NCBI GenBank assembly: GCA_944390315.1
Contig: CALXPO010000022.1
Coordinates: forward strand, 1,093-65,092
Source of the DNA: an uncultured Alphaproteobacteria bacterium
Lineage (GTDB): Bacteria; Pseudomonadota; Alphaproteobacteria; RF32; CAG-239
Direction: 5' to 3'
DNA: 64,000 nt
Numbering within the stretch: position 1 is the first letter of the stretch; each line of letters opens with the position of its first letter. The position numbers and the translations under genes are program-made. The notes below the pieces were generated by a model, which did not search any database, was not told the origin of the DNA, and saw only the letters and a program-made list of their open reading frames with translations. Of the stretch, positions 29,756-40,813 are shown in pieces.

Positions 29756-29809
29756 TTTCTTAATATAATCCTCGCAGTTTTAAATTAATTTATGTTGGAC
29801 CGACTAATT

Positions 29810-30553
29810 ATGTCAAAGTACACTTTTAAATCTTGCTTTGCAACAGATTTTGAACATATTGCGCCAAAAAATAATGCACCGACGATTTTATATCTGCATG
29901 GTTTTTGTTCGGATTGCTGGGGAAAGAAGCCTGAAACGGTCAAATGCTTTTGTTTGGAGCATGGTGTGGGGTTGTTTCGTTTTGATTATGCGGGACACGG
30001 GTCGGATAGAGAAAATTTGGATAAAGCCGATTTCGAAATTTGGAAAAGTCAGGTTTTAGAAGTCATTGACGAAGCCATAACGGGAGATGTGGTCTGTGTC
30101 GGCTCTTCCATGGGCGGCTGGCTGTCACTGATTGCGGCAATAGCGCGTCCCGAGCGTGTTAAAGGTGTGGTAGGCTTGGCGGCGGCGCCGAATTTTGTGA
30201 AAAGATTTGCCTCAATGGTCACGGCCGAACAAAAAGCCGATTTGGCGCAAAAAGGTCAGTTTAGTTTTGGTAATAAAGATTTTACTTATACGATTACCCA
30301 AAGATTTATAGATACGGCTTTTCAGAATTGTTTGCCCGAAAACGAAAAATCGTGGCCGATAGATTGTCCGGTGCATTTTATTCAAGGAATGCAGGATGCC
30401 AGTCTGCCATGGCAATGTGCTTTGGATTTTGTGCGGGCCGTCCGCTCCGAAAATGTTGAGCTGAAATTGCTCAAAGCCTCCAATCACCGCCTAAATGATG
30501 ATGATGCACAGACAGAATTGCTTAATTCTTTGGCAAAGGTTGTGAATATCTGA
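29810..30553 (+). CDS. alpha/beta hydrolase
   Basis: HGFCSD, FDYAGHG, GSSMGG nucleophile elbow, QGMQD, NHRL. Confidence 0.9.
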   Translation: MSKYTFKSCFATDFEHIAPKNNAPTILYLHGFCSDCWGKKPETVKCFCLEHGVGLFRFDYAGHGSDRENLDKADFEIWKSQVLEVIDEAITGDVVCVGSSMGGWLSLIAAIARPERVKGVVGLAAAPNFVKRFASMVTAEQKADLAQKGQFSFGNKDFTYTITQRFIDTAFQNCLPENEKSWPIDCPVHFIQGMQDASLPWQCALDFVRAVRSENVELKLLKASNHRLNDDDAQTELLNSLAKVVNI

Positions 30554-30574
30554 AAAAATTGCTTTTTATAATAA

Positions 30575-31996
30575 GTGAAAAAAGACTACTCTAAAATAAA
30601 AAATGATGTAAATCAGGTGAGAAAAGTGAAACAGCAAAAAAAACATTATTCATGTGCTCAAGGTTTGGCCGCTGCCGCGGTCAGTTTTGCTCTGGGTTTG
30701 GCGGTCATCTTGTTTGCGGCGGCCGCGTTAACTGACCGGCGACCGACAATCAATGTATATGAAACTTCGGAAAGCCGAGACGGCGCGCGTCGTGCCGAAG
30801 AGATATTTTTGGCCAAACGCATTGTGAATGTGTTGGAACCTTTAGTCGGCAAAAATAAAGTAAAAGCCGAAGTTTCACTCGATGTCGATTATGATACCGT
30901 TGCCACCAGCGAAGAAATGTATGATCCAAACGGACAGGTCTTGCGTTCGTATAAAGCGGCACAAAATTTTGCCAGCGAGGGCGAATATGCCCTTAACAAA
31001 TATAATCGACTGATTGTCCAAAACGGCGGACAAATTAAACAAATGTCGGTTCTGGTTTTGATTGAAGGAGTTAAAAAAGGTGATGAATATTTTGCTCATT
31101 CTTCAAACGAACTCAATGCTTATGCCGCTTTAATCACACCGGTTATCGGTTTTGTTGCCGAACGCGGCGACAGATTGCAAATCGAAAATTATCGTCCGCA
31201 AAATTCATCTTCTTTTGTTTCGGCTAACTGGGGCTGTTTGCTCGGTATTATCATAATTTTGATTTTACTGTGGTTGATTAACAAAAAACCGCAAGAAAAA
31301 ACACCAAACAAAAAAAATCAACTGCCTTTATGGGATAAATTGGAACAGTCGGATGGTAAGAGCCTTGCCGAGTTTTTACGGAATGAAAATCCTGCAATAA
31401 CGGCTTATGTCCTCGGAAAACTCAGTCCCGATACGGCTTCATCCGTGCTCAATGCACTGCCGATGGCAACAGCCGTTGATGTTCTGTTGGCCATGAGCGA
31501 AAATGCGCCGATAACACGAGAAGTTGCAAAAGCCATAGAGCAATCTTTGACAAACTCATTGTTTCAAGAAAAAAAACGTGAACGTCAAAGTGTTTATAAA
31601 CTCTTTTCTTTGATGAATTTGACTAAACAAAAACAAATGCTGGAAGTCTTGGAAAAACAGAATTCACCTTTGGCTGATAAATTACGTGAACTGATGTTTA
31701 ATTTTGAAGATTTTGTGAATGTCTCTGACAAAGATATCAGACGTCTGTTCGATGATGTTGAAGCCGAAAGATTAGCCGTAGCCTTGCGCGGTGCTTCCGA
31801 AAAATTAAAACAACATCTTTTTGCCAATATGTCTTCGGCAGCGGCGGAATATGTTCAAAAACAGATGAATGAAATGGGACCTGTACGTCTGATTGAAGTT
31901 GAAAAAGCTCAGGCAGAAATTATCTGTTTGGCACAATCTTTGGCATCCCGCGGAAAAATAAGTCTGGACGATACAAAGAGCGGAGGTCGACATTAA
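30575..31996 (+). CDS. truncated FliF (RBM3 ring domain)-FliG (middle and C-terminal domains) fusion protein
   Basis: TM (aa ~29-52); FliF C-terminal motifs LEPLVG..KVKAEVSLDVDYD, EEMYDP..VLRS, IKQMSVLVLI, IGFVAERGD; second TM (aa ~218-235); FliG motifs WDKL..LRNENP, MFNFED, ALRGA, NMS..MGPVRL. Confidence 0.88.
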   Translation: MKKDYSKIKNDVNQVRKVKQQKKHYSCAQGLAAAAVSFALGLAVILFAAAALTDRRPTINVYETSESRDGARRAEEIFLAKRIVNVLEPLVGKNKVKAEVSLDVDYDTVATSEEMYDPNGQVLRSYKAAQNFASEGEYALNKYNRLIVQNGGQIKQMSVLVLIEGVKKGDEYFAHSSNELNAYAALITPVIGFVAERGDRLQIENYRPQNSSSFVSANWGCLLGIIIILILLWLINKKPQEKTPNKKNQLPLWDKLEQSDGKSLAEFLRNENPAITAYVLGKLSPDTASSVLNALPMATAVDVLLAMSENAPITREVAKAIEQSLTNSLFQEKKRERQSVYKLFSLMNLTKQKQMLEVLEKQNSPLADKLRELMFNFEDFVNVSDKDIRRLFDDVEAERLAVALRGASEKLKQHLFANMSSAAAEYVQKQMNEMGPVRLIEVEKAQAEIICLAQSLASRGKISLDDTKSGGRH

Positions 31997-32415
31997 TGGT
32001 CCAAAAAGAGATTGAGTCCAATAATATAAAAATTACGGATGAAAATGCTCCCGCCGTTTTAGATTTGTCAATTAATCGTCCTTTTGTTCCAAAATTTGAA
32101 CCCGATGAGCAAAATAATCAACAATTACTCAGTCGCATACAAGAGCTTTTGCAACAAACTAAAAAAGAAGCTAAGGATAAACAGAACAGATTTGAAAATT
32201 TTCCGCTTGATATGACAGTAGAATTCGGTCAAATTGAGATAAACAATAGTGATTTGAAAAACATAGAAAACGGCATTGATACAAAAGTTAAGCACAATAT
32301 CGGCGATAATGTCAATATTTGCTTAAACGGTCATCTTGCTGCTAAGGGAAAGCTCATGTCAAAAGATGGCAAACTTGGCGTATTGTTGACCCAGATAGTA
32401 AAAATCGAGGAGTAA
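31996..32415 (+). CDS. FliN/FliM C-terminal (SpoA) domain protein
   Basis: PLDMTVEFG..NICLNGHLAAKGKL..GKLGVLLTQI pattern; ATG overlaps the stop of the fusion gene. Confidence 0.8.
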   Translation: MVQKEIESNNIKITDENAPAVLDLSINRPFVPKFEPDEQNNQQLLSRIQELLQQTKKEAKDKQNRFENFPLDMTVEFGQIEINNSDLKNIENGIDTKVKHNIGDNVNICLNGHLAAKGKLMSKDGKLGVLLTQIVKIEE

Positions 32416-32417
32416 AA

Positions 32418-33365
32418 ATGCGAATAAAAAAATTCGTCGATAACGATATGATACGTTTAATGCACCGTGTTAAAGAAGAGTTGGGAGACGAAGCGGTTAT
32501 TGTATCTACATCACAAACGGCTGACGGACGCAGTGAATTGGTTGCGGCTGTTGAAACGGATGATGTTGAATTTTCGGATAAGGACGAACCACAAATTTAT
32601 GCGGCTTCATATAGCGATGCCGTCATTCGCGAACGTCTTGATTTTCACGAAACAGGAGCTTTGGCACAGGCAAAATTACTGTCTTTATGTCGCCGCAAAG
32701 CTATTGAGGCAAATCTGAAAGATGATGCCGAAATTTTAACGTCTGTTTTGAGTGATTTGTTTACCACGTATGACATTTTGGATAAAATTCACCCCATAAA
32801 AGTTTTTGTCGGTTTACAAGGAAGCGGAAAAACGACAGCCTTGGTTAAAACGGCGGCTTTAGCTCATTTTAAGGGTCTGTCTGCGGCTATTGTCAGTATG
32901 GATACGGTTAGAGCCGGAGCCAATGCGCAATTACGAGCTTTTGCAGGGATTCTGGGCGTGGAGTTTAATCCGCTGACACATGCTAAAGAATTGCTGCAAA
33001 CGATTCGACAGGCGAGCGCAACAAATGATTTGGTGCTGGTTGATACTCCCGGATTAAATCCGTTTTCAGCAGATGACAATGAGCGTCTTAAAGAGCTTGT
33101 TGCAGAGTCAGGCGGAGAAACCATATTAACACTTGATGCCGGATATAATGCTTATGATGCAGGAGAAACCGGATTTTTGTTTGCGCAAGCCGGTGCAACA
33201 TGTTTGCTTCCGACAAAATTAGATTTATGCCGAAGAATGGGCGGGTTGCTGTCAGCAGCGGTAGAAGGAGGTTTTCGTTTGGGCTGGGCATCGGTCAGTT
33301 CCAATATAACTAATGGGTTAACATCTTTGGATATGCCGTCATTGGCGCGGGCTCTGTTGGCTTAG
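32418..33365 (+). CDS. flhF: FlhF-like SRP-family GTPase
   Basis: N-terminal MRIKKF..VKEELGDEAVIVS; G1 GLQGSGKTT, DTVRAGANAQL, DTPG, TKLD. Confidence 0.88.
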   Translation: MRIKKFVDNDMIRLMHRVKEELGDEAVIVSTSQTADGRSELVAAVETDDVEFSDKDEPQIYAASYSDAVIRERLDFHETGALAQAKLLSLCRRKAIEANLKDDAEILTSVLSDLFTTYDILDKIHPIKVFVGLQGSGKTTALVKTAALAHFKGLSAAIVSMDTVRAGANAQLRAFAGILGVEFNPLTHAKELLQTIRQASATNDLVLVDTPGLNPFSADDNERLKELVAESGGETILTLDAGYNAYDAGETGFLFAQAGATCLLPTKLDLCRRMGGLLSAAVEGGFRLGWASVSSNITNGLTSLDMPSLARALLA

Positions 33366-33372
33366 GGGAGTT

Positions 33373-34176
33373 ATGATGGAGCAGTATATCAGAACAGATT
33401 TCAAAGATTTACGCTTACAACAAGCTAACCGAATGATTGCAATTGCCTCAGGCAAAGGCGGAGTCGGTAAAACGTGGTTTTCCATCACGTTAGCACATGC
33501 TTTGAGCGCGATGAAACAAAAAACACTGTTGTTTGACGGCGATTTGGGAATGGCCAATATTGATGTGCAATTAGGACTGATGGTGCCTTTTGATTTAGGA
33601 AATGTTGTTACCGGTGCCACAACGCTCAATCAGGTTGTCCATTATTGCGACAAGTGCAGATTTGATGTTATTGCCGGACGTTCCGGTTCGGGCGGATTGG
33701 CTTCAATGCCGATAGGGCGGTTACAAATTTTGGCAGAAGATTTAGCATTGCTTTCGGGATCGTATGATAAAGTCATTTTAGATATGGGAGCAGGGGTCGA
33801 AAAATCGATTCGTATTTTATCAGGTATGTCCGGACGTGTGATTGTCGTATGTACCGATGAACCAACGGCCCTAACGGACGCTTATGCTTTTATCAAATTA
33901 ATGAATATGCAATATCCCAAATGCCGCTTGGAAGTCGTTGTTAATCAGGCCGAGAGCTTGCGTGAAGGTAAGCAGACATTTGACATTTTGCAAAAAGCAT
34001 GTCAAACCTTTTTAAAAATATCGCCGCCGTTGCTGGGAATTGTACGCCGAGATGCTCGTGTTCGTGATGCCATTCGCAGCCAGATGCCGCTAATCAGCCG
34101 TTACCCGACTTGCGAAGCCGCGGAAGATGTGATTGAAATAGCTCAAAAGATTTTGCAGGATGAAAAAAATGTATAA
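33373..34176 (+). CDS. flhG: FlhG/FleN MinD-like ATPase
   Basis: ASGKGGVGKT deviant Walker A, DGDLGMANID, DMGAG, EPTALTDAYAFIK; directly after flhF. Confidence 0.9.
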   Translation: MMEQYIRTDFKDLRLQQANRMIAIASGKGGVGKTWFSITLAHALSAMKQKTLLFDGDLGMANIDVQLGLMVPFDLGNVVTGATTLNQVVHYCDKCRFDVIAGRSGSGGLASMPIGRLQILAEDLALLSGSYDKVILDMGAGVEKSIRILSGMSGRVIVVCTDEPTALTDAYAFIKLMNMQYPKCRLEVVVNQAESLREGKQTFDILQKACQTFLKISPPLLGIVRRDARVRDAIRSQMPLISRYPTCEAAEDVIEIAQKILQDEKNV

Positions 34177-35320
34177 TCAAGATCCTTTAGAATATTATCA
34201 AATTTTGGATGTTTCGCCCGATGCCGATGCAAAGACCATCAAACTTCATTATCGGGATAAAGCAAAAGAATGGCATCCCGATTATAACAAAGCTGAGGAT
34301 GCAATAGAACATTTTCAAAAACTCTCCGTGGCATATGATATATTGCAAGACGAGAATAAGCGTTTGCGATATGACTTGCTGGCCTGCATTTATGATAAAG
34401 ATAATTTTCCTCAGATGGATGCGCTGAGCATTTTGAAAGATAGGATGAACGAAGAAAATCCAGATGTCCGAGCTTTTGACTTACGTTATGTTTTCGGCAA
34501 GATTATTAAATTTTCACATCGTGAAGAGCGTCTTATTTGTACGGAAAAGCAAGCACTTAATGAAATTCTGAAATGTTCTCTGTCTAACTGGCTTTGCGGC
34601 TGGTGGGGAATAAAATCTTTCGCAGTCAATTGTCGGGCTCTGATTGCCAATTATAAACATATCGGTACCAATCGGCAGGACAATTTAACCGTATTATTGC
34701 ATAATGCTTTAGCCTATGATGAAGAAAAAAAGGAAAAAAAATCGCTTTACTCTGCAATCTTAGCTTTGGAATATGCTTTGCCCGAGCAACGTCCGTTGAT
34801 AGAACGTTTTATTAAAAGGTTAGGCGGAAAAGTTCAAAAGCCGCCGCGTTGGCGTTGGTTTAGGTTAAAAGCCGCTAATTTACTAGTACCGTTTATTCTG
34901 TTGATGGTTATCTTGTCGCCGATTGCAAATTCTGTGTTTGGCGGCCTGCAACAATATGTCAGAAAAGAAAACGAAATTACCTATTTTCAAAAAGTTCAAT
35001 TTAACAATGGCGGTGAAACTTTTGATGATATTGTCGTTTCTAAGATTTTTGATATTCCGGTTGATATTTATGATGACAAGATGCTTTATCACCTCAAAGC
35101 CGATACGGATGTGATGTATGGTCCGGGAGACAAATTTGATGTTATGGCGAAAGGAGTTGAGGGACAAACGGTTCGTTTAACCGGATTTACGCCGGATAAG
35201 AGTTGGTATAGGATTATGCTTGATAACGGTGAAATGGGTTTTGTTGAGAAAAACGCTGTTGAACAAGGTATGGGTAAAGCGCCGTCCATCGGGAGCAAAA
35301 TCGTGGCCGAAACACGATAA
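34160..35320 (+). CDS. J-domain membrane protein with C-terminal SH3-like domain
   Basis: YYQILDV..WHPD..AYDIL J domain; WLCGWWGI; TM LLVPFILLMVILSPI; C-terminal YGPG..V..G..WYRIML..GEMGFV. Confidence 0.82.
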   Translation: MKKMYNQDPLEYYQILDVSPDADAKTIKLHYRDKAKEWHPDYNKAEDAIEHFQKLSVAYDILQDENKRLRYDLLACIYDKDNFPQMDALSILKDRMNEENPDVRAFDLRYVFGKIIKFSHREERLICTEKQALNEILKCSLSNWLCGWWGIKSFAVNCRALIANYKHIGTNRQDNLTVLLHNALAYDEEKKEKKSLYSAILALEYALPEQRPLIERFIKRLGGKVQKPPRWRWFRLKAANLLVPFILLMVILSPIANSVFGGLQQYVRKENEITYFQKVQFNNGGETFDDIVVSKIFDIPVDIYDDKMLYHLKADTDVMYGPGDKFDVMAKGVEGQTVRLTGFTPDKSWYRIMLDNGEMGFVEKNAVEQGMGKAPSIGSKIVAETR

Positions 35321-39720: not shown

Positions 39721-39832
39721 TATTTTCTTAATACTATATTAAATTTTTTCAACTAACCTACATTCCATAAAAAGAATGTGGGTTTTTTGCTCACAAAAAT
39801 TGTGTGCTAAAAACAAAGGAAAGGATAAAAAC

Positions 39833-40813
39833 ATGACAACACCGCTTATGCCCAAAGCCACAGCTGTATGGTTGGTCGAAAATACAACACTAACATTTAA
39901 GCAAATCGGTGATTTTTGCGAGCTACATGAGTTGGAAATTCAAGCTATTGCCGACGGAGACGTCGCTTTCAACATTGTCGGTCTCAATCCGATAACCGGC
40001 GGCCAATTAACGGCAGAAGAAATTAAACGCTGTGAACAAGATGAACATGCATCGCTTCAAGCTCTGGAGCCGGAACATAATGTTAAAATACAAAATCTAA
40101 AAGCTAAAAAAATGCTGTCGCCGTCACAACGTAGCGACAAGCCTGCTGCCATTTTATGGATTTTGCGCCATTGTCCCGAAATTATCGATTCGCAAATATG
40201 TAAATTAATAGGTACGACTAAAAAAACAATTGAAGGTTTGCGCAACGGTACACATCGAGAAATGGAAGGATTGCGTCCGAAGAATCCGGTTGCCATAGGT
40301 CTATGTAAAGAAAAAGACTTAGATGAGGCTATTGCAGTTTCTCAGAGATGGCTTGAGCAAAAAAGTAAACCGAAGAATATCAAAAGCAAAGTAGCTAAGA
40401 AAGCCGCGGACAAAGAAAAAGCGGCAGCTAAGAAAGCCGCTAAGAAAGCTGCGGACAAAGAAAAAGCGGCAGCTAAGAAAGCCGCTAAGAAAGCCGCGGA
40501 TAAAGAAAAAGCGGCAGCTAAGAAAGCCGCTAAGAAAGCCGCGGACAAAGAAAAAGCGGCAGCCAAGAAAGCCGCTAAGAAAGCCGCGGACAAAGAAAAA
40601 GCGGCCGCTAAGAAAGCCGCCAAAAAAGCTGCGGACAAAGAAAAAGCGGCAGCTAAGAAAGCCGCCAAGAAAGCCGCGGATAAGGAAAAAGCGGCAGCCA
40701 AGAAAGCCGCCAAGAAAGCCGCGGACAAAGAAAGAGCAGCAGCCAAGAAAGCCGCCAAGAAAGCCGCAGCCAAAAAAACAGTAAAAAAGAAAACAGCTGT
40801 TGTCGAAAAATAA
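39833..40813 (+). CDS. DUF1013 (TrcR-like) protein with Lys/Ala-rich repeat tail
   Basis: PLMPKATAVWLVENTTLTFKQI..LHELEIQAIADG, KPAAILW, LIGTTK..P..IGLC; C-terminal KKAADKEKAAAKKAA repeats. Confidence 0.9.
   Translation: MTTPLMPKATAVWLVENTTLTFKQIGDFCELHELEIQAIADGDVAFNIVGLNPITGGQLTAEEIKRCEQDEHASLQALEPEHNVKIQNLKAKKMLSPSQRSDKPAAILWILRHCPEIIDSQICKLIGTTKKTIEGLRNGTHREMEGLRPKNPVAIGLCKEKDLDEAIAVSQRWLEQKSKPKNIKSKVAKKAADKEKAAAKKAAKKAADKEKAAAKKAAKKAADKEKAAAKKAAKKAADKEKAAAKKAAKKAADKEKAAAKKAAKKAADKEKAAAKKAAKKAADKEKAAAKKAAKKAADKERAAAKKAAKKAAAKKTVKKKTAVVEK
40394..40777 (+). repeat. coding 45-bp tandem repeat (8 full copies plus a partial copy)
   Basis: Unit gctaagaaagccgcggacaaagaaaaagcggcagctaagaaagcc; copies differ mostly at synonymous positions. 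Confidence 0.95.

Follow-up and report, generated by a model that had tools for sequence, protein, structure and literature searches.

What does a bacterium do with part of a flagellar rotor when the rest of the flagellum cannot be found in its genome? We address this question at a locus in a stretch of 64,000 nucleotides (hereafter, the window) from a genome of an uncultured alphaproteobacterium (GCA_944390315.1, contig CALXPO010000022.1), in which a single gene joins pieces of FliF, the protein of the membrane-supramembrane (MS) ring, to pieces of FliG. An earlier reading of the letters, made without database searches (the sequence-only reading), had proposed a natural in-frame FliF-FliG deletion fusion devoid of the export-gate housing, that is, the ring-building motifs RBM1 and RBM2, and of both halves of the split domain, and Pfam searches and alignment now substantiate it. 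From the evidence below we infer, with a probability of about 0.5, that the fusion forms an export-less, stator-less ring, placed by FlhF and FlhG, which would act as a positional scaffold.

A FliF-FliG fusion without RBM1, RBM2 and the split domain

The single polypeptide carries, in order, a first transmembrane stretch (TM1), the RBM3 of FliF, a second transmembrane stretch (TM2), a linker of 15 amino acids (aa), and the middle (FliG_M) and C-terminal (FliG_C) domains of FliG. Its topology is N-in, with RBM3 and its shortened collar in the periplasm between the two membrane spans (Table 1). The RBM3, or S-ring, profile YscJ_FliF_C (PF08345) scored 70.3 bits in two stretches against a cut-off of 23.8, FliG_M (PF14841) scored 54.8 bits over residues 262-330, and FliG_C (PF01706) scored 121.2 bits over residues 359-464. 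YscJ_FliF (PF01514), the RBM1-RBM2 profile, had no match in the fusion at E-values up to 1 and none genome-wide, and the FliG_N profile (PF14842) reached 14.1 bits against a cut-off of 25, the match falling over the FliG_M region. This is the pattern of three present and two absent Pfam families that the sequence-only reading had predicted. Against the NCBIfam models, the protein scored 133.4 bits for fliG (TIGR00207, model positions 112-328 of 338; cut-off 226.7) and 35.6 bits for fliF (TIGR00206, positions 232-300 of 555; cut-off 129.75). It is clearly derived from both FliF and FliG, although it falls below both equivalog cut-offs.

The domain boundaries were mapped by alignment to two proteins of a flagellated family-mate, its FliF of 540 aa and its FliG of 340 aa. 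Residues 69-126 of the fusion align to FliF 228-285 and residues 153-207 to FliF 346-410, and the FliG alignment begins at fusion residue 252 ('LWDKL'), which corresponds to FliG residue 112. The stretch from VLRS to EYAL spans 11 aa in the fusion versus ~46 aa in the family-mate FliF, so that ~35 aa of the collar are missing. Also missing are FliF ~45-225 (RBM1/2), FliF ~460-540 (the tail) and FliG 1-111. The co-fold of the FliF C-terminal tail with FliG_N has no counterpart in this protein, in which TM2 is followed by 15 aa and then by FliG residue 112. The short collar, the joint of about 15 aa between TM2 and FliG, and the loss of the FliF tail and the FliG N-domain had all been described from the letters, and the alignment to the family-mate confirms them. 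The interval given at that time, 30575-31330, covers the FliF part and the junction; the gene continues to 31996.

Both hydrophobic stretches are flanked by Lys-rich segments, and the assignment of two spans is based on hydrophobicity and model helices. An A..F..GL motif in TM1 is invariant in the fusion alignment and recognisable in the short forms described below, and the linker ranges from 15 to ~50 aa among relatives. The AlphaFold2 (AF2) model had a mean predicted local distance difference test (pLDDT) score of 66.7, with the domains at 75-90 and the collar and linkers low. Foldseek matched the model to FliG MC structures (4fhr_B, E 3.8e-14; 1qc7_B, TM-score 0.95 by target) and to FliF MS-ring chains (8t8p, E 1.9e-7; 7cg7; 6sd1) at E-values of ~1e-6 to 1e-7, and RBM3 gave a PDB profile match to 6scn (E 6.5e-14). 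An alternative GTG start at 30626, with AGGTGA upstream, would yield a protein of 456 aa and agree with the N-termini of relatives; from this, GTG 30626 rather than GTG 30575 may be the true start.

RBM3 is predicted to pack side by side

Homo-oligomer modelling, proposed in the sequence-only reading, was performed with four copies of residues 60-215 and their own fusion-protein alignment. The four RBM3 copies packed laterally, side by side, with a score of 0.62 against 0.00 for the best control, contacts agreed at 90% or more among runs, and a partner pLDDT of at least 77. Of the proteins used for calibration, 20 of 30 solved as same-chain pairs and 1 of 23 solved as single chains attained this mark; the calibration applies only roughly to four copies with their own alignment. 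In the model, each copy touches two neighbours: helices 68-92 and 186-192 pack on strands 97-104 and 158-164, and in the collar, strands 106-118 meet strands 140-152. Residues 82, 86, 99, 101, 160 and 190 belong to this predicted interface. The RBM3 fragment of Salmonella FliF by itself builds the S-ring and collar (PMC11739650).

Purifying selection on the fusion and its operon

The fusion is the first gene of an operon of tightly packed genes on the same strand, continuing with a fusion of a FliH N-terminus to FliN, FlhF, FlhG and a J-domain membrane protein. The ratios of nonsynonymous to synonymous substitution rates (dN/dS) were calculated by the Nei-Gojobori method for four close sister-species pairs, three of which come from one trio and so are not independent. 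The window's own species is not among them; pairs including the window have saturated dS. The relatives P0002 and P0003 are 84% identical to the window's fusion at the protein level. For the fusion (FliF'G'), dN/dS was 0.14-0.18 in the four pairs. Within the protein, RBM3 had the lowest values (0.02-0.09, pooled 0.06), followed by FliG_C (0.12-0.24, pooled 0.17), FliG_M (pooled 0.22) and the transmembrane and linker parts (pooled 0.22-0.34). The other genes gave 0.05-0.10 (FliH'), 0.04-0.34 (FliN'), 0.06-0.14 (FlhF), 0-0.016 (FlhG) and 0.10-0.12 (J-domain protein), and threonyl-tRNA synthetase (ThrRS), included for scale, gave 0.01-0.06. The reading frames are intact in 22 of 22 gene-bearing genus genomes, across divergences at which dS is saturated. 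The fusion gene is kept under purifying selection and is not a pseudogene. The earlier suggestion of selection for a self-assembling ring is thereby upheld as to purifying selection, with RBM3 the most constrained part, and needs qualification as to its target, which is not the ring alone: 11 of the 23 genus genomes have dropped RBM3. The FliH-like and FliN-like genes of sister species are likewise constrained, despite the absence of FliI.

These values bear on the idea that the locus is a slowly decaying relic, the leftovers of reductive genome evolution, in which the fusions are deletion by-products with no function or a residual, dispensable one. Such decay would account for the graded series of cluster reduction within one family (see below), for the small genomes, for the changed residues of FliG_C that presumably contact the stator, and for the persistence of FliH' although FliI is gone. 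It is at odds with dN/dS well under 1 for every relic gene in all four pairs, with the intact frames, with altered FliG_C positions that are conserved inside the fusion clade, and with the retention of two separate in-frame fusions instead of frameshifted remnants. We therefore consider decay an unlikely explanation.

Altered FliG surfaces

The EHPQR-type motif of FliG_M, which we take to be the FliM-binding motif, is not conserved in the fusion: it reads NENPA in the window and E[CSGT]P[ASG] in other fusions, versus NEYPQ in the family's canonical FliG and SEHPQT in T. maritima. The charges of the torque helix that face MotA are presumably those of E. coli FliG K264, R281, D288, D289 and R297. 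We compared these columns in 10 family members of the canonical FliG type, in 16 fusions and in 5 short forms, the latter being relatives without RBM3. All 10 canonical proteins read K...R...ED...R. In the fusions, the Arg equivalent to R281 is replaced by A, E, D or Q (16/16), the Glu that the family has at the D288 position is replaced by Lys (13/15), and the following Asp, equivalent to D289, has become E, Q or K. Basic residues are kept at the first and last positions; the charge pattern as a whole is not retained. The replaced residues are conserved across the fusion clade, and the short forms retain the Arg in 4 of 5 cases. The changes in the motif and in the helix fit the loss of MotA and FliM, and they leave room for a new partner as well. 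That the re-charged helix has been re-tuned to a particular partner, such as the sole remaining motor of the MotA/ExbB family (TolQ-like), seems very improbable to us.

The same data raise the possibility of a selected protein that makes no ring: a membrane-anchored FliG_MC, with FliH' and FliN', serving as an adaptor or regulator that docks, for example, FlhG, the J-domain protein or another envelope machine, with RBM3 as an optional oligomerisation add-on. The short forms, which retain TM1, TM2, FliG_M and FliG_C without RBM3, are as this explanation predicts, as are the identical FliG entry point 'W.KL' in every form, the constraint on FliG_C where there is no stator, and the conserved re-charged helix of the fusion clade. 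However, no other part of the protein is as constrained as RBM3 in the clade that carries it, any docking partner is putative, and the short forms hold the Arg that the fusions have lost, so that the two forms may differ in role. An adaptor without a ring thus strikes us as improbable, on a par with decay.

The remaining flagellum is not detected

The window's genome (1.56 Mb in 27 contigs, 100% complete by markers) contains one FliG_C and one FliMN_C match only, and profile searches of it returned no PF01514, FHIPEP, FliP, Flg_bb_rod, Flagellin_N, MotB_plug, MinC or MinE. The searches of the genus took in 29 genomes, 24 of them with a completeness of 90% or more; none of the 29 has FHIPEP (FlhA), and none has FliI or MCPsignal (chemoreceptors) over the cut-off. 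FliM was found in one of the 29, G194, as a FliM-like open reading frame (ORF) in a 292-aa frame scoring 29.5 bits (G194:C2:14956-15294). One MotA_ExbB member with a TolQ-like score occurs in each of 4 genus genomes, and two occur in each of 2 flagellated relatives. A basal body with export gate, FliI, rod, hook and filament was not found by these searches, in which FliQ, FliR, FlhB and the hook families had no separate search. The genus consists of small-genome gut Alphaproteobacteria without a detected flagellar export apparatus, rod, filament, stator or chemoreceptor.

The ring pieces might still belong to a working but cryptic flagellum or secretion system, whose other genes are unassembled or too divergent to detect. 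Every genome is a draft metagenome-assembled genome, the FliM-like ORF of G194 exists, and the window's genome encodes three T2SSE-type ATPases. Nevertheless, FHIPEP and FliI are lacking throughout the 29 genomes, FliP, rod, flagellin and MotB_plug are lacking in a 100%-complete genome while the same searches matched control genomes, and the export-gate housing is deleted within the fusion protein itself. We regard a hidden flagellum or secretion system as highly unlikely.

The fusion is not an assembly artefact

In a run of another study, a contig of 33 kb spans 30400-32600 and differs by 5 substitutions, without any indel. A contig from a third run covers 30400-31641 with zero differences; these comparisons were made with assembled contigs rather than raw reads. 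Fifteen proteins of 419-475 aa, with the identical three Pfam domains and 39-100% identity, came back from a word-indexed protein search, and the mean column identity of the fusion-protein alignment is 59%. The concern raised in the sequence-only reading, that the junction might be an artefact, is laid to rest by the independent contigs, these 15 proteins and the 11 of 23 genus genomes with the fusion. A chimeric contig or binning error joining fliF to fliG, for which we found nothing beyond the metagenome-type assembly of 27 contigs, has a negligible probability and is already refuted as far as contigs can show, given the contig of the other study that crosses the whole gene, the same architecture in 11 genus genomes and 15 protein clusters, and the conserved synteny.

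A flagellar cluster reduced in place

The sequence-only reading was right about the fusion itself and left unreported both the operon and its second deletion fusion, in which a FliH N-terminus is joined to FliN. Over its N-terminal 28 aa, this second fusion is 43% identical (E 5e-4) to a FliH-like protein of 171 aa from a sister species, and ORFs resembling the 139-aa protein are present in two other genomes. Between FliF'G' and flhF, sister species with this fusion have two genes instead, one FliH-like (170-176 aa) and one FliN-like (86-87 aa), and in one sister species the FliH Pfam match is 24.5 bits. For FlhF, the best NCBIfam match was TIGR03499 (114.7 bits, under the cut-off of 174.15). 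FlhG of the window is 71-76% identical to the FlhG encoded downstream of flhF in flagellated relatives. FlhF and FlhG are encoded together with intact nucleotide-binding motifs and, by synteny, are orthologous to the placement pair of flagellated relatives. The J-domain protein has a single hydrophobic stretch (~238-262) and a C-terminal domain of ~120 aa beyond the span. Its gene is the neighbour of flhG wherever the locus was examined, also in 6 of 6 loci (L113-L118) of genomes without FliF/FliG or FlhF.

The gene order of the genus is ThrRS, glycosyltransferase family 4 (GT4), hydrolase, FliF'G', FliH', FliN', FlhF, FlhG, DnaJ-like, YmdB, ZapA and elongation factor P (EF-P). In flagellated family-mates the order is fliF (540 aa), fliG (340), fliH (253), fliN (119), an flbD-like sigma-54 activator (440), flhA (707), flhF, flhG, a gene X (542, no Pfam match) and dnaJ-like. 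The flagellated relative G014 reads EF-P, a hypothetical gene, ZapA, YmdB, an interval of 7.8 kb, DnaJ-like, X, FlhG, FlhF, FlhA, FlbD, FliN, FliH, FliG and FliF. Because the gene order and the YmdB-ZapA-hypothetical-EF-P flank correspond to those of the flagellated relative, the window's cluster is the ancestral flagellar cluster reduced in place. By this comparison of gene orders, the fusion arose in place through internal deletions in an ancestral fliF-fliG-fliH-fliN-flbD-flhA-flhF-flhG cluster.

Three neighbouring genes were observed in addition. Gene X, of 542-589 aa and without a Pfam match, lies between flhG and the J-domain gene in flagellated relatives (L031 2083-3711 and L032 1329-3098, both minus strand) and is deleted in the window's genus. 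An alpha/beta-hydrolase gene at 29792-30553 (+) stops 22 nucleotides upstream of the fusion, holds this position in 8 of 9 genus loci (it is missing in G194), and may be co-transcribed with the relic operon. A gene of the TrcR family (transcriptional cell-cycle regulator, 161 bits) lies 4.5 kb downstream, at 39776-40813 (+).

Table 1 Features of the fusion gene, of its operon in the window, and of short-form loci in other genomes of the genus
Feature	Position	Strand	Evidence and remarks
FliF'-FliG' deletion-fusion gene	30575..31996	+	473 aa, GTG start; ORF list, Pfam and Foldseek
TM1, residues 29-52	30659..30730	+	hydrophobic stretch QGLAAAAVSFALGLAVILFAAAAL; helix 27-53 in AF2 model; Lys-rich cytoplasmic N-terminus before it
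Periplasmic FliF RBM3 (S-ring) domain, residues ~66-207	30770..31195	+	PF08345; shortened beta-collar
TM2, residues 217-236	31223..31282	+	hydrophobic stretch WGCLLGIIIILILLWLI; helix 218-235 in AF2 model
Lys-rich linker (junction), 15 aa	31283..31327	+	in place of FliF C-tail and FliG_N; ends at start of FliG alignment
FliG middle domain, residues 252-330	31328..31564	+	PF14841; aligned to T. maritima FliG 1lkv (E 2.6e-47)
FliG C-terminal domain, residues 340-464	31592..31966	+	PF01706; altered charged helix
Second deletion fusion, FliH-like N-terminus (~30 aa) and FliN SpoA domain	31996..32415	+	139 aa; FliMN_C 37.7 bits, residues 65-135
FlhF, GTPase of the SRP type (SRP, signal recognition particle)	32418..33365	+	315 aa; SRP54 77.4 bits; GSGKTT, DTPG and TKLD motifs visible
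FlhG, MinD-type ATPase	33373..34176	+	267 aa; CbiA/ParA/MinD matches; KGGVGKT motif
J-domain membrane protein	34160..35320	+	386 aa; DnaJ domain residues 11-72, HPD intact; overlaps flhG by 17 nucleotides
Short form	L023 6790-7863		
Short form	L025 6353-7429		
Short form	L026 6491-7543		
Short form	L027 6457-7548		

Stepwise reduction within the genus and family

The order-wide sample comprised 201 genomes, 23 of them in the window's genus; kin are not independent, and the counts are given as patterns. A FliF'G'-type match is present in 22 of the 23 genus genomes, the exception being G175, which is 92% complete. Eleven have an RBM3-containing fusion, of which one is split at contig ends and another, in G194, is the most divergent (L028 388-1806; 472 aa, ~26% identity to the window's protein). 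In another 11, the match is a short form of 350-372 aa that covers the FliG part only. RBM3 is deleted from this form; TM1 and TM2, with a loop of ~40 aa between them, are followed by a linker and by FliG_M and FliG_C, which score 49.9 and 91.7 bits in Pfam. The FliG entry point 'W.KL' is common to all forms. Separate fliF and fliG genes in all relatives, named in the sequence-only reading as the pattern that would speak against it, occur in other genera of the family and in 0 of 23 genomes of the window's genus.

In a tree of 14 genomes built from ThrRS and GT4 (quick IQ-TREE, with the Shimodaira-Hasegawa-like approximate likelihood ratio test and a midpoint root), the 7 genomes of a fusion clade (support 95) and the 5 of a short-form clade (support 100) come out as sister groups, and the divergent fusion of G194 branches deeply. 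Within the short clade, the two sampled genomes that lack FlhF pair with each other (support 96). FlhF is encoded in 11 of 11 genomes with an RBM3 fusion, in 7 of 11 with a short form and in none of 79 genomes from seven genera without FliF/FliG; the short-form genomes that lacked it in the order-wide search are G012, G031, G076 and G167. The parsimonious reading is one ancestral fusion, followed by a single loss of RBM3 and then by loss of FlhF. A homologue of FlhG is present in 195 of the 201 genomes. One family thus spans a graded series: the full cluster; FliF'G' with FliH', FliN', FlhF and FlhG; TM-FliG_MC with FliH', FlhF and FlhG; TM-FliG_MC with FlhG; and FlhG alone. Genome sizes are small, at 1.2-2.0 Mb.

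Discussion

We return to the positional scaffold, which we prefer to decay and to an adaptor without a ring. In this scheme, RBM3 would self-assemble into an S-ring-like ring in the inner membrane, and every subunit would bear its own FliG_MC just under the membrane, the covalent tether substituting for the lost co-fold of the FliF C-terminus with the FliG N-terminus. FliN', together with FliH' or its N-terminus, would decorate the cytoplasmic face. FlhF would insert and place the ring, as for FliF in polar flagellates, and FlhG and the J-domain membrane protein would restrain or read out its assembly. Such a structure would amount to a 'ghost basal body', with no export and no rotation, used as a polar mark or scaffold that feeds FlhG-dependent spatial regulation, for which the known precedent is the control of the division site in Campylobacter jejuni. 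The output of the scaffold might be the division site, the envelope or another polar machine. Only tentatively, and as a possibility that we rank below the scaffold itself, the locus might encode an autonomous organelle: a self-assembling inner-membrane ring with a covalent FliG/FliN' face. FlhF would place this ring, FlhG and the J-domain protein would police it, and the rotor would have been exapted as a non-rotating, non-secreting polar landmark that positions the division site, the envelope or a polar machine.

Several parts of this scheme have counterparts in Vibrio. Vibrio FlhF is reported to bind the N-terminus of FliF, TM1 included. It also promotes MS-ring formation (PMC10941966). SflA is a single-pass membrane protein with a cytoplasmic DnaJ motif; it has functional ties to FlhF/FlhG and FliF and is believed to inhibit the formation of the MS ring (PMC10941966). 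The J-domain membrane protein of the window is translationally coupled to flhG. It differs from SflA in that its J-domain is N-terminal, with a C-terminal part beyond the span, and its gene persists in genera without FliF; the two proteins are alike in kind.

A number of observations weigh against the scaffold. The pair of FlhG and the J-domain protein stays together in all six of the examined loci without FliF/FliG, and FlhG is nearly universal in the order; since FlhG persists in genomes without FliF/FliG, its conserved role is independent of a ring. Of the 11 genus genomes that have lost RBM3, 4 also lack FlhF, and these losses look like stepwise decay as much as specialisation. The window's genome encodes a full-length MipZ homologue (260.7 bits; G000:C25:83579-84340, L123), and MipZ is a division-site system independent of FlhG in that genome. 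The C. jejuni mechanism needs FliM, which is absent here, and fliG is dispensable there. The FliG_MC tree, in which 21 of 42 forks are open, does not group the fusions of the genus with the canonical FliG of the family; it hints at several fusion origins, with a resolution too poor to decide between one and several. Finally, the oligomer model indicates likeness rather than proof, as solved MS rings may be remembered by the modelling program.

The idea that FlhG is the sole division-site system was also considered, and it is weakened by the full-length MipZ. MinC_C was over the cut-off in 0 of the 201 genomes of the order.

The division-site cue of C. jejuni that involves FlhG requires flhF, fliF, fliN and fliM, and fliG, the genes of the type III secretion system (T3SS) and the rod genes are dispensable for it (PMC3228812). 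The required set nearly equals the set retained in the window, and the T3SS and rod genes that are dispensable in C. jejuni are absent here, where MinC and MinE were not found by the profile searches. In contrast, C. jejuni has full working flagella, and its cue requires FliM and not FliG; the window's genome also has MipZ.

The protein shares with the canonical MS/C ring the RBM3 and FliG_MC folds, the TM1-periplasm-TM2 topology and a FliN SpoA domain, here encoded next door. It differs in falling below the equivalog cut-offs, in the lack of FliM, in ENPA in place of the EHPQ-type motif and in the altered charged helix. Laboratory FliF-FliG fusions from Salmonella and Vibrio alginolyticus (FliFG, 8z4d/8z4g) likewise combine the MS-ring protein and FliG in one chain, and the 8z4d chain matched the profile of our fusion alignment at an E-value of 1.4e-46. 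However, the 945-residue 8z4d chain keeps RBM1/RBM2, whereas the natural fusion is without RBM1/2, ~35 aa of the collar, the FliF tail and FliG_N. The Salmonella constructs reportedly also kept RBM1/RBM2 and functioned inside a complete flagellum. Whereas the laboratory fusions work in a complete flagellum, the natural one occurs in a cell without export gate, rod, stator or FliM. The Vibrio fusion assembles into rings when in the membranes of E. coli, and cells with the Salmonella fusions were flagellated and motile (PMC10941966).

SpoIIIAG, which the sequence-only reading had invoked, is a case of an RBM3-kind ring-building motif outside the flagellum. The comparison holds as an analogy only: the domain is plainly derived from FliF, the SpoIIIAG structure 5wc3 was a weak Foldseek match (E 1.3e-2, TM-score 0.43 by target) against 1e-6 to 1e-7 for FliF rings, and no sequence relation of the fusion to SpoIIIAG was detected. 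The domain is thus not closer to SpoIIIAG than to FliF.

Fusions of this kind also occur elsewhere. An exhaustive profile search of metagenomic protein space found the same architecture (RBM3, FliG_M and FliG_C, without RBM1/2 or FliG_N) in P0025, P0026, P0027, P0031 and P0039, RBM3 with a full FliG in P0021, P0028 and P0041, a full FliF with a full FliG in P0067, and a full FliF with FliG_M and FliG_C in P0078. The other proteins of the same architecture share 24-30% identity with the window's protein and are not recovered as a single clade in the weakly resolved FliG_MC tree; in P0039, EHPQ is retained, as are the charged residues of canonical FliG. Among 401 sampled alphaproteobacterial genomes, a single frame across RBM3 and FliG was seen only in the window's genome and in G587. 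The latter belongs to a different alphaproteobacterial family with a larger genome of high GC content; its fusion (L131, G587:C74:1-1251, minus strand) reads TM1, RBM3, TM2, a Pro/Ala linker and FliG_M with EHPQ intact, and the ORF runs off the contig. We therefore rejected the notion that the architecture of RBM3, FliG_M and FliG_C is unique to the window's genus, given P0025-27, P0031, P0039 and G587. A protein of 996 aa, P0035, combines FliM, DUF4116 and FliG_MC. No description of natural FliF-FliG deletion fusions, or of flagellar relics of this lineage, was found in the literature searched, the coverage of which stops short of supplements and subscription journals.

When non-motile bacteria carry an incomplete set of flagellar genes, the usual explanation is that the export apparatus has been reused for secretion. 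Here the opposite subset survives under purifying selection: the ring, pieces of the C-ring, and FlhF/FlhG, with no gate, rod, stator, FliM or chemotaxis. For structural work, the fusion offers a natural minimal MS/C-ring with a short-collar RBM3, FliG at 1:1 and no split domain. From the family series one can read which interactions are retained or lost as a set, with RBM3 always accompanied by FlhF and FlhG always by the J-domain protein, and the genus is a natural experiment on the roles of FlhF, FlhG and basal rings beyond building a flagellum, a question raised by the work on division in C. jejuni. The finding is thus relevant to researchers of flagella and of cell polarity alike and, if the polar landmark is true, it would provide a clear example of exaptation, from flagellar rotor to cell-biological organiser.

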